DNA from: an uncultured Thalassotalea sp.
GTDB lineage: Bacteria; Pseudomonadota; Gammaproteobacteria; Enterobacterales; Alteromonadaceae
Direction of reading: 5' to 3'
Assembly (NCBI GenBank): GCA_947492575.1
Contig: CANLNK010000002.1
Location: 127,304 to 159,303, forward strand
Length of the DNA stretch: 32,000 nt
The position numbers and the translations under genes were made by a program. Position 1 is the stretch's first letter; every line of letters starts with the position of its first letter. Positions 13,808 to 32,000 of this stretch are shown in pieces. A model generated the notes under the pieces. That model searched no databases, had not been told where the DNA came from, and was given only the letters and a program-made list of their open reading frames with translations.

Positions 13808-13825
13808 GATTATTTAATTAATTGT

Positions 13826-14710: not shown

Positions 14711-14712
14711 AT

Positions 14713-15258
14713 CTAAAATTTAGGTGCCTGATTAAAAAACAATCCGCCTGCATCTTTTGCAGATAAACTTGGCTCTTTTTCATCAACTAAAGGCCAATCT
14801 ATTGCGAGTGTTGGATCATCCCAACGAAGAGAAACCTCAGCGTTAGGGTTGTATACATCGGTACACTTATATACAAATTCGGCCGATTCACTCGTTACAT
14901 AAAAGCCATGCGCAAAGCCTTCTGGTACCCAAAATTGCTTTTTATTCGCTGCTGAAAGGAATACACCGACCCAGTGTCCAAACGTAGGAGAGTGCTCACG
15001 CATATCTACGGCCACATCAAACACTTCTCCTTGAGTTACTCTAACCAGTTTCCCTTGCGTATTCTCTGTTTGATAATGTAAGCCTCGCAAAATACCTTGA
15101 GACGACTTGCTGTGGTTATCTTGCACAAAAACACGCACCCCACAGTTTTGGTTAAAGCTTTCTTGACGAAAAGTTTCCATGAAAAAACCACGTTCATCCC
15201 CAAATACTTGAGGTTCTAATATTTTTACATCGGGAATTGATGTTTCTACAAACAGCAT
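14713..15258 (-). CDS. rmlC: dTDP-4-dehydrorhamnose 3,5-epimerase
   Basis: 181 aa. It has FGDERGFFMETF, LRGLHYQ and GFAHGF, which are cupin-type RmlC signatures. Confidence 0.95.
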   Translation of the reverse strand: MLFVETSIPDVKILEPQVFGDERGFFMETFRQESFNQNCGVRVFVQDNHSKSSQGILRGLHYQTENTQGKLVRVTQGEVFDVAVDMREHSPTFGHWVGVFLSAANKKQFWVPEGFAHGFYVTSESAEFVYKCTDVYNPNAEVSLRWDDPTLAIDWPLVDEKEPSLSAKDAGGLFFNQAPKF

Positions 15259-15260
15259 AA

Positions 15261-16142
15261 TTAGAATATCTTCTCTTCGATTAAATTAAGTAGGTACTCG
15301 CCATAGCCACTCTTCTTTAATGGCTCAGCAATTTCGATTAGCTCTTGTGTTGTTATCCAACCATTTCGGTAAGCAATTTCTTCTGGACAATTAATCTTTA
15401 AGCCCTGTCTTTTTTCAACCGTTGCTATGAACTGGGCAGCAGCGAGTAAATCGTCATGGGTTCCCGTATCAAGCCAGGCAGTTCCTCGTCCCATAATTTC
15501 CACTTTTAACTCGCCAGCACGTAAATACTGTTCTATCACATCAGTAATTTCTAGTTCGCCACGCGGTGAAGGAGTTACATTTTTCGCATATTCTACAACA
15601 TTACTATCAAAGAAATATAAACCTGGCACTGCATATTTTGACTTCGGCTGTAATGGTTTTTCTTCAATGGAGATAGCGACTCCCTGCTCGTCAAACTCGA
15701 CTACACCATAGGCTGAAGGGTTAGCAACATGGTAACCGAAAACTGTACCACCTGACTGTTGTTGATTAGCAGCAATTAATGACTTGGTTAAGTCATGTCC
15801 ATAGAATAAGTTATCACCTAAAACTAACGCGGCGGGTTGCCCAGCAAGAAACTCTTCGGCAATAATAAAAGCTTGAGCTAAACCATCTGGCGAGGGTTGC
15901 ACTGCATACTCAATAGTAACACCAAAGTTTGTGCCGTTCCCTAATAAATCTTCAAATCGACTTAACTCTTGAGGTGTTGAAATAATAAGTACTTCTTTAA
16001 TTCCGGCCTGCATTAATGTTGCGAGCGGATAATAAATCATAGGCTTATCATAAACAGGCATCAACTGCTTACTTACCACTTTAGTTAAAGGATATAGGCG
16101 TGTACCAGAACCACCAGCCAAAATAATACCTTTACGCGACAT
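15261..16142 (-). CDS. rmlA: glucose-1-phosphate thymidylyltransferase
   Basis: 293 aa. It has [17 protein letters not shown], a YGVVEFD segment and the typical RmlA C-terminus. Its start overlaps the wzt stop by 11 nt. Confidence 0.95.
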
Positions 16143-16863
16143 TTGCTTTATCCTTTTCTTTTAATGTTTTTGTTGTGTATTGATGGTATTCAGACATTAC
16201 ATTTTCCGTTCTACCTAAAGCCATAATTTTGCCATTATTAAGCCATAAACAACGGTCACATAGTCGAGCAATTTGTTTGGCACTGTGGGAAACGAAAATG
16301 ACAGTTTGGTCACCTTTCATTTTATTTAACAAAGCTCTCTCAGCCTTTTCCTTAAAGGTTCGATCACCAACGCTTAACACTTCATCGATCAGCAAGATAT
16401 CAACATCTAATACCAAACCAGTTGTAAACCCTAGCTTGGCACGCATACCAGAAGAATATGTCTTTACTGGCTGCTCAAAAAAGTCACCAAGTTCTGAAAA
16501 AGCTTTTATTTCTTCCAATTTTTCGGTGGCATCAGCCTTTGAGTAACCATTTAGCATACAACTAATAAGCGCATTATCTCGACCCGTTAATTGGTTATTA
16601 AACCCTAAGCCAAGAGCCAAAAGTGAACGAGTAACATCTCCGAGCCACTCAATGGAACCGGAATCCGGAATTAACACTCCTGCAAGTACTTTTAATAGGG
16701 TTGACTTTCCTGAGCCATTATTCCCAAGTACTCCAAAAATCTCGCCTTTACTAATGGTAAACGAGACATTATCTAAAGCATTAAACTTGAACCGTTTAAA
16801 AAGCCCAGTTCTTACTGAGTATGACAAGCCAACATCTTGCAAACTGACTACAGTGTGACTCAT
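16132..16863 (-). CDS. wzt: polysaccharide/O-antigen ABC exporter ATP-binding protein (nucleotide-binding domain only, no C-terminal carbohydrate-binding extension)
   Basis: 243 aa. It has Walker [10 protein letters not shown], the signature [11 protein letters not shown], and Walker [13 protein letters not shown]. Its ATG overlaps the wzm stop (TAATG). Confidence 0.9.
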
Positions 16864-17654
16864 TAGAGTAATTTCCTTGTTAAGTAATTACTATTCTTAG
16901 TTAACAAAAAAGTACCAAGTATAATAGCCAGAAGCGCCCAACAAGTTATTGATAGCATATATTTAAACTCAAGAACGCCCTGCCACATAAGTACTTCTCG
17001 ATATCCCTGAATTAGCGCAGCTAAGGGGTTTAGTAAGAGCAACATATCTTTTAAGTTAGGGTCTTGTATTAAGTTAACATCCCAAAAAATACCGGAAGTA
17101 AACATAAGGCCCAACATAAAAAGCTGTATTACCATACGAAAGTCTTGCGCTATTGTGACGAAAACAGAAAAGAACGCCGCCACCCCAATAGTCAATAAAT
17201 ATTGTAAAAGGATAATAGGTATGAGATTAAGCCAATGAAATGAGGCGGAAAAGCCATTTACTATTAATACGACAAACAATACGACAAAAGCTATTTGTTG
17301 CTTATAAAAGGCCTCTTGACAATTAACAAGAGGAAACATCGCCTTGGGCATATCCCGCTGCATTAGCAATCCCTTATTTTCGATGAGGCTATTTGCCCCC
17401 GAAGTAACAGCTTTTGAAAACCACAAAAACGAGATTTTACCTACCATCAAAAATGTTAGAAAGTTTTCTCCCCCTCTATACAGTACATACTTGAATACAA
17501 AATAAAAAAGTAACACGTATAACAAGGGTTCAAGCACCCACCATAGATAGCTGAGTACTAGATTATTTGCTTGCGATTTTAATTTCATTAGAGCTTGTGT
17601 ATGAACAAGCGATATAAATCTTGAGGCATTCATGAGAACCAGAGACTCCCCCAC
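16863..17654 (-). CDS. wzm: ABC-2 type polysaccharide exporter permease
   Basis: 263-aa hydrophobic ORF with about 6 predicted TM segments, immediately upstream of and coupled to wzt. The track start is GTG. An in-frame ATG at 17633 (MNASRF...) is an alternative start. Confidence 0.8.
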   Translation of the reverse strand: MGESLVLMNASRFISLVHTQALMKLKSQANNLVLSYLWWVLEPLLYVLLFYFVFKYVLYRGGENFLTFLMVGKISFLWFSKAVTSGANSLIENKGLLMQRDMPKAMFPLVNCQEAFYKQQIAFVVLFVVLIVNGFSASFHWLNLIPIILLQYLLTIGVAAFFSVFVTIAQDFRMVIQLFMLGLMFTSGIFWDVNLIQDPNLKDMLLLLNPLAALIQGYREVLMWQGVLEFKYMLSITCWALLAIILGTFLLTKNSNYLTRKLL

Positions 17655-17770
17655 TCTGGATTAATGTAATATAACGACCATCCTAAGCCGCAGATAAAAT
17701 ACACTAATTAATATCTAGATTAAATACTTTAAAATGTTTTTAAAAGTATCCGCCCACTTTTCATACTAAA

Positions 17771-19195
17771 TTAACATTTTATTGACAATGAAATTACTTT
17801 TAACTTAAAAGCAAAGACCATAATTAATAAAAGAATCGGAAGATAAAATGCACTTGATAACCAAATGGAACTATTTCCAATCTGTATATAAGTCAAACAA
17901 AACACTGTAATAAGCGAAGACAAAATACAAATTGTAAAAGGTAATAACAGTTGCCTTAAGAGATTAAAAGCATTTACATTTGCATGACGTGAAAGCAAGA
18001 ATTTCAGATGGAACAGAAATAGAACGACCTGAACGCATATGAGCGCTATTGCCACCTGTTCGATGCCAAACTGAGCCCCAATATAAATACTGATAGGAAA
18101 CACTATCAATAACCCAAGGTTCCATTTAAATAACTGCTTAACTTTGCCAATTGCCATAAACAATGACCCCAGCGGATTCATACAAGATCTAACTAAACAC
18201 CAAATTGCGAATAATGTAAGTAATTGAGATAGATGTAACCATTTATCACCAAATAAGAAACTTACAACTTCTTCACTGAAAAACGCTAAGAAGCAATAAA
18301 TTGGGAAGTTAATAAGTGCTAATGTTGAAAGTAACTTGGTATAAATTATTGGTAAATCAGGTGACTTCTGCAATTTGGACATTACAGGAAACGCGACTCT
18401 CGTTAATATTGGGTTAATAACTAACGCTGGTTTCATACAAAACTGACGAACTAAGTTATACCCACCTAAAATTTCAGTTCCTAATAACTTACCTACTAAA
18501 ACCACATCAATATGTGAGTTAATGTAGTTTACGACGCCATCACCTGTTTGATAGGCACCAAAGCTTAAATAGCCAGAAAGACTTTTGTAAGAAGAAGGCA
18601 ATGTAGGCCTAATCTTAGCCGGCGATAGAATAATAAATAGCAGCGCTTGAACAGTTAAATTAGCTAAATAGCCATATACAAGCGAAAATACCCCATACTC
18701 GGCATTCAAACAGTACACAGCGGCAAGTAAGCCCGCTAATTGGCCAACAATCTCTACTTTACTGATAATGTTAAACATCAGTTGTTTTTGCAAAACTACC
18801 AAGTGCATTCTAAAGCAGGCACTTAACAAAAAAGCTGGAGACAAACTGGTGATTAACTGTTGCAAATGTTTAGCTTCGAAAAATAAAGCTGCCAACGGCG
18901 AAATAGCTATCATCAATGTTGCCACAAGCAAGGCTACGAACAAATTAATGACATATAGCTGGTTTACGTCATTTGGTTTTACTTCCTCTTTATGAATTAC
19001 TGCATTACCTATACCCAAGTCCATAAATACTTGAGCGAAGCCTACAAACAACATTAGCAAGGCATAACTACCTAATTCATCGCCAGTTAAGAAACGAGCA
19101 GCAATCGCCAATAAAGCTAATTGCGCGAAAGCTCTAATCAAGGTTGATGAGGTAGTCCATTTGATACCAGACTTTGCTTTTTCGAAAATCGACAT
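17771..19195 (-). CDS. wzx: Wzx-type (MOP superfamily) lipid-linked oligosaccharide flippase
   Basis: 474-aa polytopic protein with about 12-14 hydrophobic segments. Its N-terminus (KWTTSSTLIRAFAQLALLAIAARFL) is typical of the polysaccharide-biosynthesis-protein family. Its ATG directly abuts the stop of the GT56 gene. Confidence 0.8.
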   Translation of the reverse strand: MSIFEKAKSGIKWTTSSTLIRAFAQLALLAIAARFLTGDELGSYALLMLFVGFAQVFMDLGIGNAVIHKEEVKPNDVNQLYVINLFVALLVATLMIAISPLAALFFEAKHLQQLITSLSPAFLLSACFRMHLVVLQKQLMFNIISKVEIVGQLAGLLAAVYCLNAEYGVFSLVYGYLANLTVQALLFIILSPAKIRPTLPSSYKSLSGYLSFGAYQTGDGVVNYINSHIDVVLVGKLLGTEILGGYNLVRQFCMKPALVINPILTRVAFPVMSKLQKSPDLPIIYTKLLSTLALINFPIYCFLAFFSEEVVSFLFGDKWLHLSQLLTLFAIWCLVRSCMNPLGSLFMAIGKVKQLFKWNLGLLIVFPISIYIGAQFGIEQVAIALICVQVVLFLFHLKFLLSRHANVNAFNLLRQLLLPFTICILSSLITVFCLTYIQIGNSSIWLSSAFYLPILLLIMVFAFKLKVISLSIKC

Positions 19196-20245
19196 CTAAT
19201 GTCCTAGCAACTGCAGCCATTTAGGCGCTAGTGCGGCTTCTGTTAATGTATTATTTAGAATATCTGAATTCCTGCATTCGTTATCTAACGATGCTCTTAA
19301 TGATTCATAGCTAAACGAATGTAGAGATTCTGAACAAGTGAGTTTAAACCCCATGTCCGTAAGATAGCTAAAGCTAGATACTTTAGACTTCATAAAAACA
19401 GGTTTATTAAGGGCAAACATTGCATAAACCACAAACAACCCTTGCTGCCTATCGTGGCCAAATACACAAATATCAACATCTGAAAGTAACTTGGCATGCT
19501 GTTGTTTAGTCAACATGTCTTGATAAGCAGTGAATTTATCGCCAAAAATATCGTTACCTGCTCTAACAACTTGCTTTATGTAATCTACCTTACCTGCGTA
19601 ATTAAGTGTGCAAACCACTTTAATGTTTTCATCTGCTAAGTGCTTTAGTTGTTCAAACATTTCAAGATGGTTATTGGACTGAGCTGCCGAGTTTCCTACC
19701 AAAAAGGTAAGGGGCTTAGCAACGTTGGTTGATTTGCGTTCGTCAGTATTTTTTAAATTATCTAGATAAGCTTGTTCGAGAGGGTAAGGAATAACCAAAG
19801 CATCTCGGCGCTTTAAGTATTTTTCCACAAGCGCTGCATCACCTTTATTTAAACAAACAACGGACTCATAACGCTTACACAAAAAACGATGAATACATTT
19901 AATAATTCGTTGTTTAAATGTAAGCTTTGGAAGCTGGTAGCGATAAATATCTGCTCCCCAGAAAACACAACTTGCCCTAGAGGTTAGAGGATGGAACAAA
20001 AGCATTAGCCAAACTTTAGGGTCGAAGTTGCCGTGAATAATTAACTTGGTACTTCTTGGTAATTTATCAAGTTGTCGTTTTAAACCCTTGGCATCTTGAT
20101 AGTAATTAAAGCCGTCAATTTCTCGTTGCTCTGGTAAAGCAAGCGCCCAAAATTGCTGTTCCTCTGATACGTCCTTTAAACTACGAAAATAACTCGCCAT
20201 CGAGACGTAGTGATGAGGAGTATCTGCAAATATATGAACTATCAC
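19196..20245 (-). CDS. GT56-family glycosyltransferase (WecF/TDP-Fuc4NAc:lipid II transferase-like)
   Basis: 349 aa. IVHIFADTPHHY, LIIHGNFDPKVWLMLL, VFWGADIY, FLVGNSAAQSNNHLE and VFGHDRQQGLF are collinear with the conserved blocks of E. coli WecF as I remember that sequence. The GTG start overlaps the upstream stop (GTGA). Confidence 0.8.
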   Translation of the reverse strand: MIVHIFADTPHHYVSMASYFRSLKDVSEEQQFWALALPEQREIDGFNYYQDAKGLKRQLDKLPRSTKLIIHGNFDPKVWLMLLFHPLTSRASCVFWGADIYRYQLPKLTFKQRIIKCIHRFLCKRYESVVCLNKGDAALVEKYLKRRDALVIPYPLEQAYLDNLKNTDERKSTNVAKPLTFLVGNSAAQSNNHLEMFEQLKHLADENIKVVCTLNYAGKVDYIKQVVRAGNDIFGDKFTAYQDMLTKQQHAKLLSDVDICVFGHDRQQGLFVVYAMFALNKPVFMKSKVSSFSYLTDMGFKLTCSESLHSFSYESLRASLDNECRNSDILNNTLTEAALAPKWLQLLGH

Positions 20246-20970
20246 TGTGGTTCCTTCGATAGCTCTACTTTTACATACACTTTTTCACCTTGCTCATTAA
20301 CATAATAAGCATTGGCATAGTCACCGTGAGTTAGTGCTCTTAACAAGTCTAGGTGCTGCTGTAACGTGCCAGTACTTGTTAAATCTAATTGGCACAGCTC
20401 TTTAAAATCTGAAATTCCGTTGTAATTTCCGGTTTCTGATGGCCTACTCGCTGAATAGTCACAGGTAATCCAAGACAATAAGTGCTCTTCAATAAGCGCT
20501 ATCTCTTCCTGCTGAATTTTGTCATAAGCGCTTTGAGACGTATCTTCACTTGAAAGCGCTATCTCCCTCTGGGTAATAATGTCACCGTGGTCAATCTCTT
20601 TATCCATCAAGTGAACAGTAACCCCTGCAGGCTTACCATTAATAATAGAGAACACTTGTGGGAACCATCCTCTATTAAACGGATTTAAACCAGGGTGAAT
20701 ATTAATACACCTGACATTTGATACTAAATAGTCAGGGAATATCTGCTTACAATGTGCAGAAATAACGAGATCGTAGGATGCAGCAATTTCCTCAGCTGAC
20801 GACTTGACGTCAATTTTTGACATCCCCATTGCTTCTAATGCGGTAGGCACTTTATTTATCGAGCTATATTTATAATCGAAAGTATACTCTTGGTAACATG
20901 ATGCTTTAGTAATCCTAATAAACTCACTCACCAAAAGCACATTGTCAGATACGACAAGTATATTCATCAA
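20242..20970 (-). CDS. sugar N-formyltransferase (dTDP-4-amino-4,6-dideoxyhexose formyltransferase-like, VioF/WbtJ type)
   Basis: 242 aa. It has the formyltransferase core INIHPGLNPFNRG followed by VHLMDKEIDHGDII (Asn/His/Asp catalytic pattern). Size and context (after a DegT aminotransferase, with rmlA/rmlB nearby) fit this enzyme type. The probable true start is the ATG at 20967, one codon inside the track start. Confidence 0.8.
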   Translation of the reverse strand: MMNILVVSDNVLLVSEFIRITKASCYQEYTFDYKYSSINKVPTALEAMGMSKIDVKSSAEEIAASYDLVISAHCKQIFPDYLVSNVRCINIHPGLNPFNRGWFPQVFSIINGKPAGVTVHLMDKEIDHGDIITQREIALSSEDTSQSAYDKIQQEEIALIEEHLLSWITCDYSASRPSETGNYNGISDFKELCQLDLTSTGTLQQHLDLLRALTHGDYANAYYVNEQGEKVYVKVELSKEPQ

Positions 20971-22058
20971 AGTTCTCTATATTGTTTAAGGAAATCTATT
21001 ACCGTATCGCAAATATAATCTACTTGTTCGAAACTCAATTCATAGTACATAGGCAGGCATAGCACTCGGCTACAAATATCATTAGCTATTGGCGTCTCAC
21101 CTGCTCCCTTATAACACTCAACTAAACTTAAGCTGGGGTAGAAATATCGCCGAGTTTGTATTTCTAAACTGGCAAAATGGGCTTGAAGCGTTTCTAGCTC
21201 AGCTTCATTATTTAAAATTATCGGGGCATAAGCGCCATTAGGTTTACATGTTTCAGTAAAAAATGGGAAGCTGACATGGCCTTTGAGATTATTAATGTAT
21301 TGGGCTGCAAGTTGTGCACGATGAGAGGTGATACTCTCAACATGTTCAAATAAAGATAAGCCCATAGCAGCATGTATTTCACTCATCTTCGCATTTATAC
21401 CAACGAGGTTTGGCATATTATTAGCGTCGAAACCAAAATTAATTAATTGCTTCGCTTTTTCATAATCGGCCTTATTCTTGAACGCTACCGCTCCGCCTTC
21501 TACGGTGTGAAAAATTTTAGTTGCATGAAGGCTTATTGTCGCGGCATCGCCATATGCTAGTAGAGGCTTTCCGTCATATTCAGCACCAAAAGTGTGTGCA
21601 GCATCGTAAATAACTTTTAGCTGGTGTTCTTGTGCCAACGCTTCCAAGGTTTTTACGTCACAAGCATTGCCATATACATGCACTGGTAGAATTGCAGAAG
21701 CACTTTTTAGGGCGTCTGTTGAAATAGCTTTTGGATCGAGGTTCAAAGTCTCCCTATCTATATCTGAAAAGATAGGGTCTATACTTAAAGCAGATAATGT
21801 ACTACTCGTCGCAGCGAACGAAAAAGGTGTAGTGATAACTTTACCTTTTACTTCCAATGCCATTAATGCAACTTGGATAGCTAATGTACCGTTAGAAACC
21901 AATAATAAATATGGTACCTTAAAGTAGTCAGCTAGCTTTTGTTCAAGTTCCTGTAAAACGGGCCCATTGTTGGTTAGATAGTTTCGTTCAAATATATCTT
22001 CGATTCTGGCGCTGTAAGCTTCAAACTTTGGTAAGAATGGTTTGACAATCGGGATCAT
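20967..22058 (-). CDS. DegT/DnrJ/EryC1-family PLP-dependent sugar aminotransferase (dTDP-4-keto-6-deoxyglucose 4-aminotransferase-like)
   Basis: 363 aa. SLHATKIFHTVEGGAV contains the Schiff-base lysine context of this family. The N-terminus (NYLTNNGPVLQELEQKLADYF) is also typical. Its ATG overlaps the upstream stop (ATGA). Whether the product has gluco (VioA) or galacto (WecE) configuration cannot be told. Confidence 0.9.
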   Translation of the reverse strand: MIPIVKPFLPKFEAYSARIEDIFERNYLTNNGPVLQELEQKLADYFKVPYLLLVSNGTLAIQVALMALEVKGKVITTPFSFAATSSTLSALSIDPIFSDIDRETLNLDPKAISTDALKSASAILPVHVYGNACDVKTLEALAQEHQLKVIYDAAHTFGAEYDGKPLLAYGDAATISLHATKIFHTVEGGAVAFKNKADYEKAKQLINFGFDANNMPNLVGINAKMSEIHAAMGLSLFEHVESITSHRAQLAAQYINNLKGHVSFPFFTETCKPNGAYAPIILNNEAELETLQAHFASLEIQTRRYFYPSLSLVECYKGAGETPIANDICSRVLCLPMYYELSFEQVDYICDTVIDFLKQYREL

Positions 22059-23862: not shown

Positions 23863-23899
23863 AAAAACAAAAAAGCGAGCCTAAGCTCGCTTTTTTTCT
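23863..23899 (-). terminator. rho-independent terminator downstream of the surface-protein gene
   Basis: Minus-strand sequence AAAAAAAGCGAGC-TTAG-GCTCGC-TTTTTTGTTTTT. A GC-rich 6-bp stem is extended by A/T pairs, closes a 4-nt loop, and is followed by a T run. It lies 16 nt after the TAA stop at 23915. Confidence 0.75.
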
Positions 23900-23914
23900 A
23901 AAGTACTATTCGCA

Positions 23915-25210
23915 TTACTTAGTAAGTACGCGATCACCGTCTGACTTAGTGAAGTATAGTGCTTTGATTTCAGTCGCTGTAGACGGAGTGTTAACAACTA
24001 CGTCAAATGCAACAACACCTGAAGTGATGCCAGCGTCAGCGATAGCTTGCTTAACAGCAGCAGAGATGTCTGTAACACCTTCAGCCATAACAGTAGCAAC
24101 ACCTTCGAAAGTAACCGCATCTTCACCAACGTAAACAGTTACGTCAACACCACCAGTTTGAGTAGAAGTGTTAGAAACAGTAACAGCTTGTGCGTAGTTA
24201 GAACCTACGTACATTAATGGGATGTGTGCTTTTGCACCGTTAAGCGTCCAAGAACCTGCAGCAGCCTTGTCTAAAGTAGCAGTAGAAAGCTCTTTAGTAG
24301 CGTCAGCTGGGTTTTCGTAAACTACGTCAGTAGAAACCATGAATGCTTGATCAGGGATTACTGTATCTTCTGGACCTTCAACTACTACGCTTACAGAGTA
24401 AGTACCAGCAGTTGCAGCAGCAAGATCTACGTCTAAAGAAGCAGACATGAAGTCTTCAGCAACTTCAGCAGCAGTACCGTCGATAGTAACAGTACCATCG
24501 TCGTCACCGCCTAACTCACCGTCACCGTCAGCGTCTAAGAATGAGAAGTCACCGTATACTGTGAATGCTTGCTCAACAGTAGTAACACCCATGTCAGTAG
24601 CTGCTAAAGTAGTTTCAACAGTCATAGTATCTTGAGTACCACCACCAACGAATGCTTGACGTTGTTCGTTTACGTCAACAACACCATCGAACTTAGCTGA
24701 AACTTTAGAAGAAAGCTCTGCTGCGAAAGTGTAAGCAGTGCCAGCAGCTGACTTATCAACGTCGATTGGACCGTCAACAGTGTCAACACGACCAGCAGCA
24801 GTTACTTTAACAGTACCTTTGTCAGCAGCACCAGAGATGTCTAACATTACGTCTGCTAATGTGAAAGTAGCGTCTGCGTCACCTTCTGCGAAATCTTCAG
24901 TTACTAAGTAACGCACAGCGTTATCTTTGTAGCCAAGGAATTCTAAAGAAGTGTTAGGATCAGCAATTGTAATTGCATCGCCATCTTCGTCTTCAGTTAC
25001 AACATCTGCACCTGAGAAAGTTACAGTGATGATGTCACCAGCTGAGTAATCACGACCTAAAACAACTGTTACGTCTTGCGCTTCAATCGTTTTGATACCT
25101 TGCGCGTACTCAACACCAATTACAGTGTCAGTAACACCTACAGTTGATGCAGCAGCGCCAAATGATGCAGTTGTGGCCACAGCAGCTGCAATAAGCGTCT
25201 TTTTAAACAT
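23915..25210 (-). CDS. secreted, highly acidic, Cys-free Thr/Val/Ala/Asp/Gly-rich protein; candidate S-layer or abundant surface protein
   Basis: 431 aa. It has a Sec-type signal peptide MFKKTLIAAAVATTASFGAAAS with an A-x-A cleavage context. There is no cysteine, and D+E greatly outnumber K+R (I count 16 K and 5 R). The RBS is strong (GGAG 7 nt before the ATG). Codon choice differs markedly from the neighbours (GGT, GCT/GCA, GTT/GTA, GAC, TTC, ATC, CGT) and the local GC is visibly higher. The gene has its own terminator and a 386-bp upstream leader. Confidence 0.55.
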   Translation of the reverse strand: MFKKTLIAAAVATTASFGAAASTVGVTDTVIGVEYAQGIKTIEAQDVTVVLGRDYSAGDIITVTFSGADVVTEDEDGDAITIADPNTSLEFLGYKDNAVRYLVTEDFAEGDADATFTLADVMLDISGAADKGTVKVTAAGRVDTVDGPIDVDKSAAGTAYTFAAELSSKVSAKFDGVVDVNEQRQAFVGGGTQDTMTVETTLAATDMGVTTVEQAFTVYGDFSFLDADGDGELGGDDDGTVTIDGTAAEVAEDFMSASLDVDLAAATAGTYSVSVVVEGPEDTVIPDQAFMVSTDVVYENPADATKELSTATLDKAAAGSWTLNGAKAHIPLMYVGSNYAQAVTVSNTSTQTGGVDVTVYVGEDAVTFEGVATVMAEGVTDISAAVKQAIADAGITSGVVAFDVVVNTPSTATEIKALYFTKSDGDRVLTK

Positions 25211-25341
25211 TATATTTCTCCAATTTCATGAAATTGAACACTATCCAAATCATTTGTTTGTGTTCTTTATCTTTTACCTTTCGGTTCTTCATTTGTTCGC
25301 AATACAGCGTCCATAATGAACACTTAATAACGAATACCGCC

Positions 25342-25371
25342 AATTTACAACCATAAAAGCCTAAAAGTCAA
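25342..25371 (-). promoter_or_regulatory. candidate sigma70 promoter for the surface-protein gene
   Basis: The minus strand reads TTGACT (25371..25366), an 18-nt spacer, then TAAATT (25347..25342). This would give a 5' UTR of about 125 nt. It is the best match I found by eye in the 386-bp intergenic region and has no other support. Confidence 0.3.
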
Positions 25372-25596
25372 CAGCCCAAATCAAACTTTGTTAATAAAAA
25401 TAAGATATTGGTTGAATTTTACGCACCCTTTAATTTTAGAGAAAGTTATCTCCAACTGTACCCTTAAAATCTATCGACTAGGGTTTAACTTAAATTTGTT
25501 TCAGTTTTTTTAAAATGTCTGAATTAGTATAGTGTGCAATGAAAATATCACACGCTATTTCACATTCTTACTGGCTGTAAAGCCGCTTATTTAGCC

Positions 25597-27672
25597 TTAT
25601 TCATTAATGATATTTAGACCACTAAGCGACTGCTGGAATGAGGACATGATCCCACTCCATTGCTCACTTCTAGAAATTACTTTTGGTGTCACCAACAGCA
25701 CCAACTCTGTTTTTGAGAAGGAGTCACTCTTCGACTTAAATAAATTCCCTAAAACAGGAATGTCGCCAAGTAATGGGATTTTGTTATCTACGACTGATTT
25801 ATTTTCATCTATCAATCCTCCCAATATTATTGTTTGGCCACTTTCTGCTACTACCGCCGTTGCCAAGTTACGTTCATATATGTTTGGATTTCCTGTACTG
25901 CCTGACGCCGATGACTCGACTTCATTACTGATAGATTCAGTTATATCCATGATGACAACGCCTTGAGCATTGATAGTCGGAGTGACTGAGACCTTAATGC
26001 CAGTTTGACGATAAGAAGTAGATGTGGTCTGCCTATCATTTTCACCAAACCCGTCTGTAACTGAATCTGTTACAGATATTTGCTCACCAACTTCTAAGGT
26101 CGCCGTGACTCCATCTCTAACCAAGAGGCTAGGGTTAGACAAAATTTTAACGTTTGTGTTGCCTTGTGAAAAAGCTGCACTGACGGTATCACTAAAGCCA
26201 TTGGTTAAAGAAAAGCTGAAGCCACCATCAGAGGCACTTACGTCTCCAATTGTCCCTCCACTAAAACGGCCATTTTCGAGAGCCCATTTAACACCGTACT
26301 TGAAGTCATCAGTTAGCGTAACTTCCGCGACCACTATATCAAGCATTACTTGCTTAGGAAGAACGTCTAATCGGTTAACTAAAGGGATGATATTTCTGTA
26401 CTCAGTTCCAGTTGTATAAAATATCAATGCGTTTGAGCGCTCATCTACCACAAACGTCAATTCAGTATTAGAAGCACCGGTCACTTTTTTAGCTTTCACT
26501 AAATTTGACGTGCTTTTTCCATTTGAATCACTAGTACTAACTGCAAGTTGACTGTTAGCGCTTTTAATTGCTTGAGTTCTTGCGGAAATCAGTGGAGTAA
26601 GGCTTTCGCCAATATCTGCTGCTCTTGCATATTTTGGATGATAAACGTAATACCGCTTTACATCACCTTGCGGTGGCTTATCGAGCGTTTTTGTCCAAAA
26701 CTTAACTCGATCCATAAGCTCCTTTGTAGCTGAAAAAACTGCTACTGCACCAATTTGCATTAATGGTACGAAAACCAAGTTATTATTTTGTGGATCATTT
26801 ATGCTATTCGGAATTCCTTCCGTATCTAAAAGTGCTTGTAATTGCTGAAGGTAAATATCAGGAGATGAATACACTAACTTAACTAGCCCTACATATCGCC
26901 CTCTATTTGCCGGAGAATCTAATAATTGAATTAATTCAACAGCTCTTGCTACATTAGTGTAGTTACCACGTATAAACAAAGCACTTTGTTTCACATCTAA
27001 ATTGACTTTAACGTCTGCTAATTCCTGAACAGTGTTTTTAAGTGAGGTTTTAATGCCGTATAAGATAGGCATTACATGAAGTATGCTTCTTCCTCGCTCT
27101 ACTGAACTTACTTCTCGCCCCATACTGACGATAGTTGATGATTTGCTCTTGGGATCAAGCTTGTTAAGCATGAAGGTGTTATTTTCATGTTTAAGCTGAA
27201 TGTTTCTCTGTGCAAAAATTTGTTCTGTCAGCTGGAATAGCTCTTTCTTTGAAACCGCTTTATTCAGGTTTAATGTCACAACTTCTTTGCTATTGGCTAT
27301 GTTAGGCGCAAGCACGTAGTTAGCCTGCAACAGCTCACCAAACGTATAATGAATGAAATCAGCCAAAGGCATTTTGTTTGCTTTGACAGTTGCGACTTCT
27401 TCATCAGGAAACAAGCTTGATAACTGTGTAGACTCAAACTGAACAAGCCCTCTTTTCATTGCTTGTAATCTAGTAAACGGCCTATCTTTACTTTGCTCTT
27501 CGACATCACCAGCTGCATCGCTATCTAATAAAACATCGTCCCCACTTTCCTTTAAATAAGAAGTTTCCAACGAATGAACTTGGTTCTCTGCTTTATCATC
27601 AATACTCGCGCAACCGCTCAAGACTGTTAATAAACAAACTGAAACTAAACTAACTTTAAATTTGACCATCAC
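25597..27672 (-). CDS. gspD: secretin (GspD/MshL-type outer-membrane channel) with N-terminal lipobox
   Basis: 691 aa. The canonical secretin C-domain is present (ILGGLIDENKSVVDNKIPLLGDIPVLGNLFKSKSDSFSKTELVLLVTPKVI), preceded by N-domain-like repeats. The signal peptide ends in the lipobox L-S-G-C (VCLLTVLSGCAS). The track start is GTG and the ATG one codon inside is more likely. Confidence 0.92.
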   Translation of the reverse strand: MMVKFKVSLVSVCLLTVLSGCASIDDKAENQVHSLETSYLKESGDDVLLDSDAAGDVEEQSKDRPFTRLQAMKRGLVQFESTQLSSLFPDEEVATVKANKMPLADFIHYTFGELLQANYVLAPNIANSKEVVTLNLNKAVSKKELFQLTEQIFAQRNIQLKHENNTFMLNKLDPKSKSSTIVSMGREVSSVERGRSILHVMPILYGIKTSLKNTVQELADVKVNLDVKQSALFIRGNYTNVARAVELIQLLDSPANRGRYVGLVKLVYSSPDIYLQQLQALLDTEGIPNSINDPQNNNLVFVPLMQIGAVAVFSATKELMDRVKFWTKTLDKPPQGDVKRYYVYHPKYARAADIGESLTPLISARTQAIKSANSQLAVSTSDSNGKSTSNLVKAKKVTGASNTELTFVVDERSNALIFYTTGTEYRNIIPLVNRLDVLPKQVMLDIVVAEVTLTDDFKYGVKWALENGRFSGGTIGDVSASDGGFSFSLTNGFSDTVSAAFSQGNTNVKILSNPSLLVRDGVTATLEVGEQISVTDSVTDGFGENDRQTTSTSYRQTGIKVSVTPTINAQGVVIMDITESISNEVESSASGSTGNPNIYERNLATAVVAESGQTIILGGLIDENKSVVDNKIPLLGDIPVLGNLFKSKSDSFSKTELVLLVTPKVISRSEQWSGIMSSFQQSLSGLNIINE

Positions 27673-27684
27673 AAAATTCTTATA

Positions 27685-28248
27685 TTAAGACTTACTTTTC
27701 AAAAACAACTGCAGTGAGATTATTCTATCACCATCAGCAAGTTCTATATGATTATTCTCTATTATCTGTACTGTATAATTATCAAGCTTTTCTTGAGTAA
27801 CTAATTTGATTGACTTAATAACGCCAGATACTAAGTGTCTTTCGCTGAGTAAGGCAAACTTATTGCCGTTTTCATCAAAAATAGCGGTAAGTGAATACTC
27901 CTTTTCTCCACTAAAAAAGTTCTTCTTTGCCCCTTTTTGCTTGTTTTGCTCTTCAAGCGACATAATTTGAACTTTGGGTTTTGAAGGTTTGTTCTGTTTA
28001 GCTTTTGGTTTTGGCTTCTCAAATCTTTCAAGTGCTTCGTCTACTTTTTTAAGTTCGTCTTTCATTAGAAATTTGATTTGTGGTTTATTTTGAACACCTT
28101 CAGACACTAATGCAGATAATTTTATTTCATCACTAGTTAATCGTGACGAAAAATCAATCAAAGCAAGTAAAAAGCTCGCGACTAATAATATGGAAAGAGA
28201 AGTTTTATTCACTAGTATTCTCCTCTTTATATTTTCTCCATACTGCAA
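27685..28248 (-). CDS. bitopic secretion-system component, GspC/PilP-like (TM anchor, Lys/Pro linker, small beta domain)
   Basis: It has an N-terminal TM segment (SLSILLVASFLLALI), a basic KPKPKAKQNKPSKPK linker, and a C-terminal ~70-aa beta-rich segment (YSLTAIFDENGNKFALLSE...IELADGDRIISLQL) resembling GspC-HR/PilP domains. It sits directly before the secretin. The likely true start is the GTG at 28212, which has AAGAGGAG 7 nt upstream and overlaps the upstream stop. The track's ATG at 28248 would overlap the upstream gene by 44 nt. Confidence 0.45.
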   Translation of the reverse strand: MQYGENIKRRILVNKTSLSILLVASFLLALIDFSSRLTSDEIKLSALVSEGVQNKPQIKFLMKDELKKVDEALERFEKPKPKAKQNKPSKPKVQIMSLEEQNKQKGAKKNFFSGEKEYSLTAIFDENGNKFALLSERHLVSGVIKSIKLVTQEKLDNYTVQIIENNHIELADGDRIISLQLFLKSKS

Positions 28249-28789
28249 AAGTAATTTTGCCAGACACTCTTCCTAGCCTCATACTTGAGGCCCTCATTCT
28301 CGACACATTCAAAGTGTAGTTAGCTAGTGCAACTTTAGGTTTTAAACTCTCCGCTACCAGCAACCCTTTCATTAGCTGTTTAAAACTGCCAGTTACTGTC
28401 ATCTCCATCATCTGCTCTTCGTAACCACTTTTTTGCACTGGCGTTAACCAGCTAGTTCGAGATACAGATAACCCATGCTTTACAAACAATTCCTCTATCG
28501 CCTCTTGATGCCCTAGTCTAAATTGAACTTCGTCATCTGACGTTGTAAAAAGTAGCGCATCGTACTCTATTACTTCCTGCTCTATAGTGCCTATAGTCGA
28601 TAACATTTTATCTTGGTTTAATAGCAAGCGTTCTGTTTTCAATAGACGCTCCTGCAATTTGGCTATTGAGGCCACTTTACTTTCTTGCCACTCCAAAAGA
28701 GGCGCCACAGCAAATTTAATGGCAGCCAAAAAGAGAATAACGCCGAGCATGAGAGGCTTGTTATTTAGTAGTTCTCTCATCTTAGCCAA
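28205..28789 (-). CDS. bitopic secretion-system component, GspM/PilO/MshJ-like
   Basis: About 190 aa with one N-terminal TM segment (PLMLGVILFLAAIKFAVAPLL), then a coiled segment (IAKLQERLLKTERLLLNQ) and an alpha/beta C-terminal domain. The position between the L-like and C-like genes fits this role. The track start is TTG. The ATG at 28780 (MRELL...), 1 nt after the upstream stop, is more likely. Confidence 0.5.
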   Translation of the reverse strand: MAKMRELLNNKPLMLGVILFLAAIKFAVAPLLEWQESKVASIAKLQERLLKTERLLLNQDKMLSTIGTIEQEVIEYDALLFTTSDDEVQFRLGHQEAIEELFVKHGLSVSRTSWLTPVQKSGYEEQMMEMTVTGSFKQLMKGLLVAESLKPKVALANYTLNVSRMRASSMRLGRVSGKITFAVWRKYKEENTSE

Positions 28790-29891
28790 CCACCAGTGTA
28801 ATTTTCACCGTAAATAATTCCTTTCCACCGGACTTTACAGCTGGAGAAACAATTTCAGGGTTTTCAAGCGCACTAGAAGTCGCCAGGAAATGCATAATAT
28901 CTGTTGATTTAGAGGCTTTCATTCTCAACGTTATGTCGCTTCCTGAAAAATTAACTAGAGATACATCAGCCCCTTTGTCGGCAAGCTCAGTAATTAATAA
29001 CCAAAGGGGAGCACTTAATTGTTCGAATAGTGGATTATTGGCTAACCCTTCTAACTGAGCATTCATATTTTCCAACTGGCCTTGCTTCGCGAAAAGCTCA
29101 TTGATAGAGGATTGCTGCTTCGCTAATTGAGAAGACAGTGTATTCTCCTTCAAAATCAGATAGCCACTTGCTATCGACATGTAAGAAGCAAAGAAAACAG
29201 CTAAAGAGATTGCTGAAGTTTTTATAAAACGAGGTGACCAAAAGCTCTTAAGTAATGGCAGGTTTAAAGCCTGACTATACGAACCGCTTGGCAACAACGT
29301 AACACTTTTTAGCAATAGCATTATGTATTCGCCTTGCTCAAAATTCTGTACCTCTGCGCCGCTCTGAACAGCTGAAAAAAATCCACTTTCTTTCGTACTC
29401 ATTAAGCTCAATAGTTCGCAGCTAAAGCCATCCTTAGAAAACTCCCCATGAATAAGCCGTTCTCGAAAAGAGCCGCTAATTGAATTTGGTACAGTTTGCT
29501 TGTTTAACCTTAAGAACAACAAATAACTTTCAGGAAGAATGAACAATGAATCTCGACATTGTTCATCGATAAAGGTTTGTTTGATAACGAAAAAGTAAAC
29601 TCTAGTTTTGCCACCATCAATAGATGAAGCGGCGGTGTAGATCTGGCCAGCAAAAGGGGCTACATCCTTCATATGCTTAGCGGCAAGTAAGGCCTCTTTC
29701 TTTGAGGAAATCGGTAAGTCTTTATGGGTTTCGAATGTATGTTCTTTACCCACAATAGTAAGTAAGGCTTTAGATTCAGAAACACCTTGTAGGCCTTTAA
29801 CCCCCTTACCTTCTAAGTCTAATACATATGACTCAGCACCGTGAAACCGACAACGGTTCGCCAAAAGTTTTATCATCGCTGACAAGTGCAC
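28782..29891 (-). CDS. GspL-like / PilM-PilN-fusion-like (MshI-like) inner-membrane assembly protein
   Basis: 369 aa. It has a cytoplasmic domain of about 220 aa, a single TM segment (AISLAVFFASYMSIASGYLIL), a coiled segment (QLAKQQSSINELFAKQGQLENMNAQLEGL), and a small periplasmic domain. The GTG start has GAGG 5 nt upstream. Confidence 0.5.
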   Translation of the reverse strand: MHLSAMIKLLANRCRFHGAESYVLDLEGKGVKGLQGVSESKALLTIVGKEHTFETHKDLPISSKKEALLAAKHMKDVAPFAGQIYTAASSIDGGKTRVYFFVIKQTFIDEQCRDSLFILPESYLLFLRLNKQTVPNSISGSFRERLIHGEFSKDGFSCELLSLMSTKESGFFSAVQSGAEVQNFEQGEYIMLLLKSVTLLPSGSYSQALNLPLLKSFWSPRFIKTSAISLAVFFASYMSIASGYLILKENTLSSQLAKQQSSINELFAKQGQLENMNAQLEGLANNPLFEQLSAPLWLLITELADKGADVSLVNFSGSDITLRMKASKSTDIMHFLATSSALENPEIVSPAVKSGGKELFTVKITLVVG

Positions 29892-30010
29892 TTTTCCCTC
29901 AAAATAAACAGCCGAAGGGCATTATCCATAGTTTCTTAAGTTAATACAATCTGGTATTCGCTTGAATGTGTTGCAAATAATTTAGGTTAAGTAATTATCC
30001 CATCCATTTT

Positions 30011-30886
30011 TTACATTCGAGAGAGGATAACAAATGGCGTCACCGAATTTTGATTTTGGATTTTTACTAAAGTAACTTGCTCCAGGAATACTGTACCAAC
30101 GCTTACTTTTATAATCACTTGATGAAGCGTACCAGGGTTAAAGTCTATTGATTCAAACGTCTGGCCACCAACAAGCTTCGTCCAGTCCTGTTCGGTAAAG
30201 CTGTTGCCGCTGTTGCTATTTACAACAAGTGCTTCTGCCACACTTTCCCCAAACAAAGCAGTATTTAACTCTTTTGAAGAGTAGGCAGGGTTGAATGACT
30301 GCGTTGCATAAATTGTGACAAATTGGCTAAATTTTTGAACGACACTGTCACTCACTCCTTTGATGGCGGCAAGCTCGCTAATATGCTGCAAAGGCCCATT
30401 CCTTGGCTTAGTATTGCCCGAGTATGAAGCCAACTCTGCTCCTTGTCGCCTTGTAACATTATCAGCATCTATCCAATCCATAATGCTATCATATGTAGCA
30501 GTCAACTCATCTTCTTGGACACCGCTGAGTAGCAAAGCTCTCTTAATATAGAGTTCGGGTGCTGTTAATAATGAAAGTCGACCGGATAAAGGGTTAATTT
30601 CAACGATGGTGTAGTCATTTAGCTTAAAAGCCTTAGCTAAATACCAATTGACCTCGTTAATGTTCATACCATTAATCTGATGAGAATCCATTCTAAAAAG
30701 CTCTGCTAATACATTCGACTCTGCTGATTTTAAAAGTAACTCAGCTTGGGCTCGATCATCAAATCCCTGTGCGATCCCAACATTACTTCGTGCCGTTTTA
30801 GATATTTGGATGGCGATAACCGATATCAGAGTTGTTAGCAACAGCACCTGGATAAGAGCTAGCCCGTCCTCTTTAAAAACTTTCAC
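30011..30886 (-). CDS. gspK: GspK-like minor pseudopilin
   Basis: 291 aa. The hydrophobic N-terminus GLALIQVLLLTTLISVIAIQ, the central IMDWIDADNVTRRQGAELASY and ISELAAIKGVS match the conserved GspK blocks (DW-x-D-x-D ... GAE ... EL-x-x-[VI]-x-G[VI]). The GTG start overlaps the end of the upstream gene. Confidence 0.7.
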   Translation of the reverse strand: MKVFKEDGLALIQVLLLTTLISVIAIQISKTARSNVGIAQGFDDRAQAELLLKSAESNVLAELFRMDSHQINGMNINEVNWYLAKAFKLNDYTIVEINPLSGRLSLLTAPELYIKRALLLSGVQEDELTATYDSIMDWIDADNVTRRQGAELASYSGNTKPRNGPLQHISELAAIKGVSDSVVQKFSQFVTIYATQSFNPAYSSKELNTALFGESVAEALVVNSNSGNSFTEQDWTKLVGGQTFESIDFNPGTLHQVIIKVSVGTVFLEQVTLVKIQNQNSVTPFVILSRM

Positions 30887-31541
30887 TAAATTGCACCATC
30901 ACTCGAGAATCAAATTCGGTTAATTTGACTTGGAGATTTTGTTCTTTACCTGACAGGCCTAATTTCACGCTCAACCGTTCGGGCATTATATTTCGATTTA
31001 GGGCATTGAAAGATGTCCACCAACGCTTGGGGCTAACGTTATTCTTTTCATCAATGTTTTCAAAACCAAAATAGCTGAACTGAACGTAATCAAGTTGTTC
31101 AATTAAAACCACTTTTTTTGAAAAAGTTCTGCGTTGAGACAAGTGTGTAAAAGCCTCACCTACTTTTGCAGGGTGTTCCTCATAAATCAATTGATAACTA
31201 AAGTCTTCCGCTTGATTGATAGAAAGGCGAAAGATTGTCGGTAAGCCACCACTAAAGAGTGAGCGCGTACTTACAGCCACTAGACCTTCATCATCGCCCT
31301 CAAAGAAAATGATAGGGTTATTTTCTTCATCCCTGATAATGAAGGGGTAAATACCTTCTATCAAACGCTTAGCCATAATCAGAGATTTTGTATTTTTAGC
31401 AGAGGCGTCAAAATTTCCCAACTCATTACCCCATCGTTGCATAAAAAAAGAGTATCCTTGAGTCATTATGATTAATGTAAAACTCATAATCGCTAACGCT
31501 ACTAGCAGCTCTACCAAAGAGAAACCTCTGTTTCTTACCAT
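30873..31541 (-). CDS. gspJ: GspJ-like minor pseudopilin (prepilin-type N-terminal cleavage/methylation domain)
   Basis: 222 aa. Its N-terminus MVRNRGFSLVELLVALAIMSF is a class III signal (G|F-S-L-V-E). Size and position before the K-like gene fit GspJ. Its ATG overlaps the upstream stop (ATGGTAA). Confidence 0.7.
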   Translation of the reverse strand: MVRNRGFSLVELLVALAIMSFTLIIMTQGYSFFMQRWGNELGNFDASAKNTKSLIMAKRLIEGIYPFIIRDEENNPIIFFEGDDEGLVAVSTRSLFSGGLPTIFRLSINQAEDFSYQLIYEEHPAKVGEAFTHLSQRRTFSKKVVLIEQLDYVQFSYFGFENIDEKNNVSPKRWWTSFNALNRNIMPERLSVKLGLSGKEQNLQVKLTEFDSRVMVQFSESF

Positions 31542-31954
31542 GAGATATCCTCATATTGGTATTCTCTAGAGCGTCCCTTTACTGTTACGCTAAAAGAAAC
31601 TTGCCATTTCTTCAGCCTATGTTCTGCTTGACTTATCTCAGCACCAACAAATCTTACCGGAGGCTTTATAGTCTCTATAACACGAGCTTCCCAGAAATAC
31701 GTCCCTTCGAGTAATTCGCCTTTTCCTGATAAAGAGTTTTGAGCTTTATTTGACGCGATTTCGCTTGAGATCTCACTTGTTACTAACGTAGCAATGGAAG
31801 AGGTTAAAAGTGCACTTTCCGCTTTTGTGTTTGCGATAATGGCACCACGGAAAACAAGTGTAAATACACTTAAACTTATGAATGCAATGAGAGCCGCGAC
31901 AAGCACCTCTATTAGCGTAAAGCCAGATGAGTTTTTTCTATTGTACGTAATCAT
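31535..31954 (-). CDS. gspI: GspI-like (or small GspH-like) minor pseudopilin
   Basis: 139 aa. NSSGFTLIEVLVAALIAFISL is a prepilin cleavage/methylation motif (G|F-T-L-I-E). Size and position fit GspI. Confidence 0.65.
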   Translation of the reverse strand: MITYNRKNSSGFTLIEVLVAALIAFISLSVFTLVFRGAIIANTKAESALLTSSIATLVTSEISSEIASNKAQNSLSGKGELLEGTYFWEARVIETIKPPVRFVGAEISQAEHRLKKWQVSFSVTVKGRSREYQYEDISW

Positions 31955-32000
31955 CTAACACTACTTTAGTAAATTTATCTTGATAGCTTATTGTGAAGTG
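31938..32000 (-). CDS. 3' end of an upstream ORF (last 20 codons), probably another pseudopilin gene
   Basis: Not in the track. Hand translation of the minus strand from base 32000 gives HFTISYQDKFTKVVLDDYVQ followed by TAG at 31940..31938, overlapping the next gene's start by 17 nt. The identity is inferred from operon context only. Confidence 0.25.
   Translation of the reverse strand, partial: HFTISYQDKFTKVVLDDYVQ

Follow-up and report, generated by a model that had tools for sequence, protein, structure and literature searches.

A 32,000-nt stretch of DNA from an uncultured Thalassotalea sp. (GenBank assembly GCA_947492575.1, contig CANLNK010000002.1, positions 127,304 to 159,303 of the forward strand; hereafter, the window) carries on its minus strand a type II secretion system (T2SS)-like operon followed directly by a gene for a 431-amino-acid (aa) protein, which raises the question of what this machine secretes. 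A first-pass annotation of the DNA, made from the letters and a list of open reading frames (ORFs), had proposed that the 431-aa protein is its cargo. From gene content and synteny, we consider with good confidence that the locus belongs to a T2SS operon of the order gspG-E-F-H-I-J-K-L-M-C-D, the main and probably only substrate of which is the Slr4-family surface-layer (S-layer) protein encoded by the next gene.

The Slr4-family protein as the presumed cargo

The 431-aa protein matched the Pfam family PF19526 (S-layer protein Slr4) with an E value of 3e-74 and a score of 250.9 bits over profile positions 1–370 of 370, the cut-off (Pfam gathering score) of this family being 25 bits. Its N-terminus, MFKKTLIAAAVATTASFGAAAS, is that of a standard Sec-type signal peptide, and the mature protein has a mass of about 42 kDa, an isoelectric point of 4.05, no cysteine residues, and a composition rich in V, A, T, D, and G; an acidic protein free of cysteine is typical of S-layers. 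By this family match, the protein is a member of the Slr4 family of S-layer proteins, an identity that had been missed in the first-pass annotation. The proposal that it is the cargo gains support from the family match and from the conserved adjacency of the T2SS and Slr4 genes described below; this Sec-dependent protein is very probably the cargo of the adjacent T2SS-type operon.

Gene order and conservation in related loci

Related loci were reached through the family of the 369-aa L protein of the operon. Six of them were complete: L001 (T. euphylliae), L002 (a metagenome contig with 70–96% protein identity to the window), L009 (Shewanella eurypsychrophilus), L004, L005, and L010. The gene order WecA-GspG-E-F-H-I-J-K-L-M-C-D-Slr4 was found in all six, and three truncated loci (L003, L006, and L011) agreed with it. 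The secretin gene was followed by a gene for an Slr4-family protein in each complete locus, down to loci whose L proteins were about 20% identical. Because this gene string recurs in six other complete loci, chance is excluded as an issue. Scans of genome-collection contigs with the K-like protein and the L-family alignment yielded no confirmed relative.

Upstream of the part that corresponds to the window, the relatives carried genes for a Wza-like Poly_export protein, a WecA-type GT4 protein, and sometimes Wzz, followed by GspG, GspE, GspF, and GspH. GspG of L002 scored 123 bits with TIGR01710, above the equivalog cut-off of 88.85, and the GspE (1.8e-156) and GspF (2.1e-95) models were the best matches for the next two proteins of the relatives, yet below cut-off. 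By its gene content, the region in the window is the distal two-thirds of a T2SS operon, with the window starting inside gspH.

The window proteins were 50–82% identical to those of T. euphylliae. When the genes at 19196–31954 were compared with L002, Slr4 and the secretin were 96% and 93% identical, respectively, whereas the GspL-like, GspC-like, GspK-like, and GspM-like proteins were 70%, 68%, 76%, and 77% identical, respectively. By these identities, the cargo and its channel change more slowly than the inner-membrane platform.

The GspE-like ATPases of the relatives (L002, 2389–4092; L005, 3894–5543) have an N-terminal extension. Control of these ATPases by cyclic diguanylate was considered and set aside as unsupported; MshEN scored 26.6 bits, below its cut-off of 38, and the canonical motif was absent in a pattern search.

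Layout of the locus

In the ORF list, the minus-strand genes formed an unbroken run from the window edge down to 23915. The list confirmed the gene content, the coordinates, and the 119-bp and 386-bp gaps described in the first-pass annotation. The features are as follows:

31938..32000, minus strand: 3′ end (20 codons and the stop codon) of a gene for a gspH-like minor pseudopilin, cut by the window edge
31535..31954, minus strand: gene for a gspI-like minor pseudopilin, 139 aa, from Pfam N_methyl and the position between H and J
30873..31541, minus strand: gene for a gspJ-like minor pseudopilin, 222 aa, from Pfam N_methyl, size, and position
30011..30886, minus strand: gene for a gspK-like minor pseudopilin, 291 aa, from Pfam T2SSK_1st above cut-off
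29892..30010, minus strand: K-L intergenic region, 119 bp, aligned with L002 and T. euphylliae L001
28782..29891, minus strand: gene for a GspL-type assembly-platform protein, 369 aa, from an AlphaFold2 model and Foldseek
28205..28780, minus strand: gene for a GspM-like protein, 191 aa, from sub-cut-off GspM_XpsM and T2SSM_b matches
27685..28212, minus strand: gene for a small bitopic protein in the GspC position, 175 aa, from topology and the position between M and D
25597..27672, minus strand: gene for a GspD-type secretin with a lipobox (putative liposecretin), 691 aa, from Pfam Secretin and NCBIfam GspD
25211..25596, minus strand: secretin-slr4 intergenic region, 386 bp, with a promoter-like site and a leader
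23915..25210, minus strand: slr4-family S-layer protein gene, 431 aa, presumed cargo, from Pfam PF19526
23869..23896, minus strand: intrinsic terminator-like hairpin just 3′ of the slr4 stop codon
22055..23830, minus strand: gene for a 591-aa polytopic membrane protein with C-terminal tetratricopeptide repeats (TPRs), from TPR families; directly follows slr4
12728..22058, minus strand: surface-glycan genes (context), from Pfam scans

Two starts differ from those in the ORF list. The M-like ORF was listed at 28205–28789 (194 aa, TTG at 28789), and its likely true start is the ATG at 28780 (191 aa), as judged by orthologue alignment. The C-like ORF was listed at 27685–28248 (187 aa), and its true start is the GTG at 28212, which gives a 175-aa product identical to the NCBI-called protein P0152. 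By coordinate arithmetic, H and I overlap by 17 nt (an overlap also present in L002), I and J by 7 nt, and J and K by 14 nt. The K-L gap is 119 nt, L and M are separated by 1 nt or overlap by 8 nt depending on the M start, M and C overlap by 8 nt, and the gaps are 12 nt between C and D and 386 nt between D and slr4.

The secretin and the pseudopilins

The 691-aa secretin matched Pfam Secretin (148 bits) and Secretin_N (63.8 bits), both above cut-off. The NCBIfam GspD model (TIGR02517) covered it almost from end to end (positions 15–597 of 600) with an E value of 1e-85 and 288.5 bits, below the equivalog cut-off of 351. Scores with MshL (145 bits; cut-off, 250) and PilQ (145 bits; cut-off, 284) were at about 1e-42 and came from the C-terminal part only. 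By these scores, the secretin is a divergent member of the GspD type.

An LSGC lipobox was found at residues 18–21 of the secretin, followed by an acidic linker of about 90 residues, and the GspD-homologous region starts at residue 111. A lipobox-like cysteine was present in all seven secretins compared (the window, L001, L002, L004, L005, L009, and L010), with the variants LSGC, LTGC, LNGC, LFGC, ISGC, LAGC, and VSGC at the end of the signal peptide. No pilotin gene was present alongside these liposecretin genes. This pattern suggests that the secretins are self-piloting liposecretins, which fits the lack of a pilotin gene.

The translation of the truncated gspH-like gene, HFTISYQDKFTKVVLDDYVQ followed by the stop codon, matched the C-terminus of the H-like pseudopilin in L002 and L001 (YQDKFTKV.LDDYVQ and stop). 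Prepilin motifs of the form G↓F(T/S)L(I/V)E (Pfam N_methyl) are present in I and J and in the orthologues of H. The I-like protein gave weak matches with NCBIfam XpsI (1.5e-4) and GspI (4e-4), both below cut-off, and the J-like protein, with the motif G↓FSLVE and an N_methyl match at 4e-7, was assigned by its size and position only; the identities of I and J thus rest on weak matches and position. The K-like protein scored 58.8 bits with Pfam T2SSK_1st (cut-off, 26.2) and matched nearly the whole NCBIfam T2SS_GspK model with an E value of 9.5e-23, below the equivalog cut-off. Glutamine replaces glutamate at position +5 in its sequence. On the strength of these matches, the 291-aa protein is GspK. 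The GspD-like secretin and GspK matches, with T2SSK_1st above its cut-off, bear out the earlier description of a T2SS-type operon.

The M-like and C-like proteins

The M-like protein matched NCBIfam T2SS_GspM_XpsM (1.1e-6, over 13–166) and Pfam T2SSM_b (8.9e-4), both below cut-off, as well as PilO (0.018). Four of its five orthologues matched T2SSM_b, the best at 2.5e-5, and a profile search of the PDB with the M alignment gave nothing meaningful.

In the C-like protein, an N-terminal transmembrane helix is followed by a linker rich in Lys and Pro and by a C-terminal domain of about 75 aa; the protein has neither a PDZ domain nor a lipobox. The window protein found no match in Pfam, NCBIfam, or the PDB. 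Its position between M and D was kept in all loci, and both topology and position fit GspC.

Structure of the L protein and the pilus-type alternative

The 369-aa L protein had no match in Pfam or NCBIfam, and a profile search identified 482 relatives. An AlphaFold2 model built from an 88-sequence alignment reached a predicted local distance difference test (pLDDT) score of 92.5; it superseded an earlier, poor run with four sequences (pLDDT 55.7). In the model, a two-lobed actin-like domain in the cytoplasm is joined by a single transmembrane helix and a long helix to a ferredoxin-like domain in the periplasm. When the model was submitted to Foldseek, as the first-pass annotation had proposed for this protein, the top matches were to GspL-type proteins (EpsL, GspL, PulL, and XcpY). 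The cytoplasmic domains of EpsL, GspL, and PulL came first, with E values of 1.4e-5 to 1.3e-4 and template modeling (TM) scores of 0.43–0.47. The periplasmic domain gave TM scores of 0.65–0.71 with XcpY, EpsL, and PulL at a root-mean-square deviation (rmsd) of 2.3–2.7 Å. With structures of GspL, PilM, and PilN as references, the cytoplasmic domain was GspL-sized, and the TM scores of the model were 0.24 with PilM (rmsd, 24 Å) and 0.47 with PilN. Because both domains of the model, cytoplasmic and periplasmic, fit GspL more closely than PilM or PilN, the 369-aa protein is, on this structural prediction, GspL-type.

Profile searches of the PDB with two L alignments gave nothing meaningful. With hhalign, the L and C profiles reached probabilities below 6% against GspL, HofM, HofN, and GspC of E. 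coli K-12, an outcome that counts neither way because these references were single sequences and too weak.

The first-pass annotation had also considered that the L protein could be an MshI-like PilM-PilN fusion and the machine a hybrid of a T2SS and a mannose-sensitive hemagglutinin (MSHA)-type pilus. Stated more broadly, this alternative holds that the locus encodes an MSHA-type or type IV pilus machine, or such a hybrid, in which M, C, and D would correspond to PilO, PilP, and PilQ. The order L-M-C-D mirrors pilMN-O-P-Q and mshI-J-K-L. Among 88 sampled members of the L family, Pfam PilN matched 22 (best, 5e-9), and the Pfam GspL models matched none; the weak PilO match of the M-like protein points in the same direction, and GspE of the relatives scored nearly as well with PilB (482 bits) as with the GspE model (522 bits). 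In the usual view, GspL of the T2SS corresponds to PilM and PilN combined, and this relationship explains the PilN signal in the L family. The secretin, however, fits GspD over its full length (288 bits) and MshL or PilQ in the C-terminal secretin domain only (145 bits), GspK is present, and the major subunit in the relatives is a GspG above its equivalog cut-off. The cytoplasmic part of the L model is also nearer to GspL than to PilM by the TM scores given above.

The first-pass annotation had stated that its reading would fail if a complete MSHA or type IV pilus set lay upstream. GspG and E-, F-, and H-like genes lie there instead in the relatives. No MSHA or type IV pilin and adhesin set and no retraction ATPase were found in the six complete syntenic loci, and no MshA-D, MshO-Q, MshM, or MshN in the window or in these six loci. 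A pilus-type machine is therefore very improbable, and the hybrid proposal is not upheld, since the secretin scores better with GspD, K is GspK, and the L model is GspL-like.

A T2SS probably devoted to Slr4: points for and against

Several points weigh against a T2SS operon devoted to Slr4. The genes gspG, gspE, and gspF were seen in the relatives only and lie beyond the window edge here. Most components scored under the NCBIfam equivalog cut-offs, and GspC support for the C-like protein was weak, with GspC_delta matching two of nine orthologues at an E value of 0.0019. A prepilin peptidase (GspO/PilD) was found neither in the cluster nor elsewhere in the window, and the related loci, of 20 kb, had none either. 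The link between Slr4 and export by the adjacent T2SS stands on conserved synteny and the precedent of Aeromonas rather than on experiment, and the same two lines of evidence point to exclusivity, that is, to a dedicated system.

These points bear on a second alternative, in which a general-purpose T2SS exports Slr4 plus many exoenzymes and the adjacency of slr4 reflects substrate abundance and not exclusivity. The present data show no further T2SS in the genome of the window, which speaks for this alternative, and an S-layer-linked gsp cluster may also serve other substrates according to the NpdA paper (PMC10765051). The components are, however, far from the canonical Gsp models, L and C having no family match and others falling below equivalog cut-offs, and the cluster co-occurred strictly with Slr4 in six of the six complete loci. 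Also against it, a canonical gsp cluster exists separately in Shewanella and Pseudoalteromonas. A general-purpose system thus appears unlikely, and a T2SS with Slr4 as its main substrate is the reading we retain.

The 5′ region of slr4 and other putative regulatory sites

A promoter-like site, TTGACT-18-TAAATT, was located by a promoter scan at 25371..25342, upstream of slr4. The leader that would follow from it is about 125 nt long and carries a strong Shine-Dalgarno sequence. The terminator-like hairpin after slr4 has a 12-bp stem with five GC pairs and is followed by a T-run. These sequence features indicate that slr4 is probably transcribed separately from the secretion operon, which we consider fitting for a very abundant protein.

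The block at 25154–25401 on the minus strand, which comprises the promoter-like site, an A/T-rich upstream stretch, the leader, and the signal-peptide codons, was 90–98% identical in DNA sequence to T. euphylliae. The rest of the slr4 coding sequence was 56–86% identical, except for one interval at 94%, and the distal secretin-slr4 spacer was 32–60% identical. The leader folded somewhat better than shuffled sequences (z, −2.6). The block possibly represents a strong promoter together with an mRNA-stabilizing or regulatory leader. Neither the slr4 leader nor the K-L spacer matched an Rfam family. Four sub-threshold Rfam matches, all on the terminator hairpin, were dismissed as chance.

A perfect 14-nt palindrome, AATTTCATGAAATT, lies at about 25221–25234 on the minus strand and abuts the slr4 Shine-Dalgarno sequence GGAGA. 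A near-identical copy occupies the same place just upstream of the slr4 start in L005, whose Slr4 is only 27% identical. The palindrome may serve as an operator for a protein or form a small hairpin where ribosomes bind.

Of the 119 nt of the K-L spacer (29892–30010), about 95 are conserved in both L002 and T. euphylliae, where the proteins on either side are just 51–76% identical; in L009 and L010, which are more distant, the spacer shrinks to 1–18 nt. The promoter scan called no consensus promoter in the window spacer. The spacer may contain a lineage-specific internal promoter or a regulatory site for the L-M-C-D half of the operon.

Surface-glycan genes around the T2SS-slr4 unit

Downstream of slr4, the window encodes the TPR membrane protein, a DegT aminotransferase, an N-formyltransferase, a GT56 (WecF-like) protein, and a Wzx-like flippase. 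Further downstream are an ABC-2 permease and its ATPase (Wzm/Wzt), RmlA, RmlC, RmlD, and RmlB, sulfotransferase-domain proteins, and more glycosyltransferases. The first three genes of the glycan set at 12728..22058 are syntenic in L001 and L002, and in four relatives (L001, L004, L009, and L010) the T2SS-slr4 unit is bordered on one side by genes for WecA and a roughly 910-aa Poly_export protein. By gene content, the unit sits inside a surface-glycan cluster resembling those for enterobacterial common antigen (ECA) or O-antigen. The enzymes encoded suggest that the cluster makes a glycan containing a formamido-dideoxyhexose, which may anchor the S-layer, by analogy with the O-antigen in Aeromonas.

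The constant company of Poly_export, WecA, and other glycan genes also speaks for a third alternative, in which the machine exports, or helps to export, the polysaccharide of the flanking cluster and Slr4 is a mere neighbor. Secretin-dependent slime secretion has been reported in cyanobacteria and myxobacteria, and such secretion is the subject of PMC12475490. In the loci studied here, however, the polysaccharide already has a Wza-like Poly_export protein of its own and Wzx or ABC-2 transporters for its export, and Slr4 always stands right after the secretin, whereas the glycan genes vary between loci. The Aeromonas precedent is, moreover, one of protein export. Polysaccharide export by this machine is thus highly doubtful, and Slr4 remains the presumed substrate.

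The 591-aa protein encoded after slr4 combines a multi-span membrane domain of about 400 aa with TPR families at residues 420–570. Its N-terminal 410 aa had no match in Pfam, NCBIfam, or the PDB. The gene is kept after slr4 in L001 and L002 only, and its membership in the system is only a possibility. The N-terminal FYLDDFSSIVHN motif recalls GT-C/TMTC-type glycosyltransferases, a likeness that we presume; if it holds, a role in modification of the S-layer or the glycan would be possible.

A 1386-aa protein encoded at 8471–12631 (minus strand) had a sulfotransferase family at its N-terminus as its sole match, and a separate 209-aa sulfotransferase is encoded at 1061–1690 (minus strand). In the O-antigen/A-layer cluster of A. 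salmonicida, a small protein with a sulfotransferase domain likewise occurs, together with a WbbB-type transferase that is very large and has an unexplained role (PMC4483657).

Proposed export route and implications

The predicted route of export is as follows. Expression of slr4 would start at a strong promoter belonging to the gene itself, include a leader of about 125 nt, and end at a separate terminator. The protein would cross the inner membrane by Sec with removal of a 22-residue signal peptide and would fold in the periplasm. A GspG pseudopilus tipped with the H-I-J-K minor pseudopilins and assembled on the GspE/F/L/M/C platform would then push it through the lipid-anchored GspD-type secretin. 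Slr4 would crystallize on the outer membrane, where it would probably be held by the glycan of the WecA/dTDP-sugar/ABC-transporter cluster. The analysis shows the gene content, the family assignments, and the conserved synteny, whereas secretion of Slr4 by this machine, exclusivity, glycan anchoring, and the roles of the promoter and the leader are what we infer.

A further, tentative idea is that the Slr4-linked machine represents a distinct T2SS lineage outside the current family libraries, which co-evolved with the S-layer protein and its anchoring glycan as one island, and that the 250-nt slr4 block is a new cis-regulatory element controlling S-layer output; taken as a whole, we regard this as possible and less than likely. 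The features behind it are a GspL-type family of at least 482 relatives without a Pfam or NCBIfam model and with a PilN-like periplasmic half, a minimal protein without a PDZ domain in the GspC position, and the lipid-anchored secretin.

For a block of genes annotated as hypothetical in a Thalassotalea-like marine bacterium, the analysis provides an S-layer protein, its probable export machine, and a glycan cluster. It adds structural evidence that the unannotated 369-aa family is GspL, and it reveals a WecA-T2SS-Slr4 island architecture that is invariant across genera and an unusually conserved slr4 5′ region.

Comparison with known systems

The Hxc T2SS of Pseudomonas aeruginosa, with LapA as its cargo, is a second T2SS with essentially one substrate, and HxcQ is a liposecretin. 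The likeness to the window lies in the one-substrate second T2SS and in a secretin with an N-terminal lipid anchor; the cargo, in contrast, is an alkaline phosphatase there, and regulation and gene order are different.

The first-pass annotation had treated the pairing of a T2SS with a cargo gene as unusual. Such pairings have already been published for Slr4, for Aeromonas VapA/Sps, and, by genomics, for NpdA (PMC10765051). Slr4 was identified in Pseudoalteromonas tunicata D2 by Ali et al. (2020), who found a T2SS operon with G, E, F, K, D, and other genes directly upstream of it, described the T2SS-slr4 arrangement as conserved in marine Gammaproteobacteria, and proposed a dedicated T2SS (PMC7821379); the dedicated-T2SS inference for slr4 was repeated in the AnnoView paper of 2024 (PMC11094555). 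The P. tunicata locus and the window share a PF19526 cargo with a Sec signal (cleaved at 23–24 in P. tunicata; PMC7821379), a T2SS immediately upstream, and a marine gammaproteobacterial host, and the hosts listed for Slr4 (Thalassotalea, Shewanella, and Lacimicrobium; PMC7821379) match the relatives found here. The organism is different, and Slr4 is about 59 kDa there, in contrast to the smaller 431-aa protein here. The L, M, and C proteins, the secretin lipobox, the flanking glycan genes, and the conserved slr4 leader were not characterized in these two papers (PMC7821379 and PMC11094555).

The position of C and D at the distal end, which had also been taken as unusual, is normal in Xps-type systems. 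In Xanthomonas, the Xps genes run E, F, G, H, I, J, K, L, M, C, D; the prepilin peptidase gene lies elsewhere, and there is no pilotin (PMC11981180). The window resembles this cluster in the distal C and D, the lack of a prepilin peptidase gene in the cluster, and the lack of a pilotin and of GspA/B, and its M and I proteins gave their best, though weak, NCBIfam matches with the XpsM-type and XpsI models. Xps differs in its function in general exoenzyme secretion, the lack of a link to an S-layer gene, low sequence similarity, and another position of gspG.

A parallel in arrangement is found in A. hydrophila and A. salmonicida, in which vapA follows spsE-F-G-H-I-J-K-L-M-orf2-spsD and the sps-vapA unit separates wzm from wzt within the O-antigen cluster (PMC4413209 and PMC4483657). 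This system is stated to be essential for and dedicated to S-layer export (PMC10765051). As in the window, a C-like gene and D come last, the S-layer gene follows directly, and the unit lies inside a surface-glycan cluster; both clusters hold Rml genes, an ABC-2 transporter, and a sulfotransferase-domain protein. SpsL of A. salmonicida has 371 aa compared with 369 aa for the window L protein, and SpsM, Orf2, and SpsD of A. hydrophila have 198, 166, and 743 aa compared with 191, 175, and 691 aa in the window, respectively. The likeness described here is one of gene order, component sizes, and glycan context. The cargo in Aeromonas is VapA, G comes after E-F there and before E-F in the relatives of the window, and the Sps system has experimental support, whereas the system in the window is known from its genes alone. 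No new principle emerges, as coupling of an S-layer to a T2SS is known by experiment for Aeromonas and by genomics for Slr4 and NpdA; for the Thalassotalea locus, these systems offer precedents for C and D at the distal end, for a single adjacent cargo gene, and for the surrounding glycan genes.

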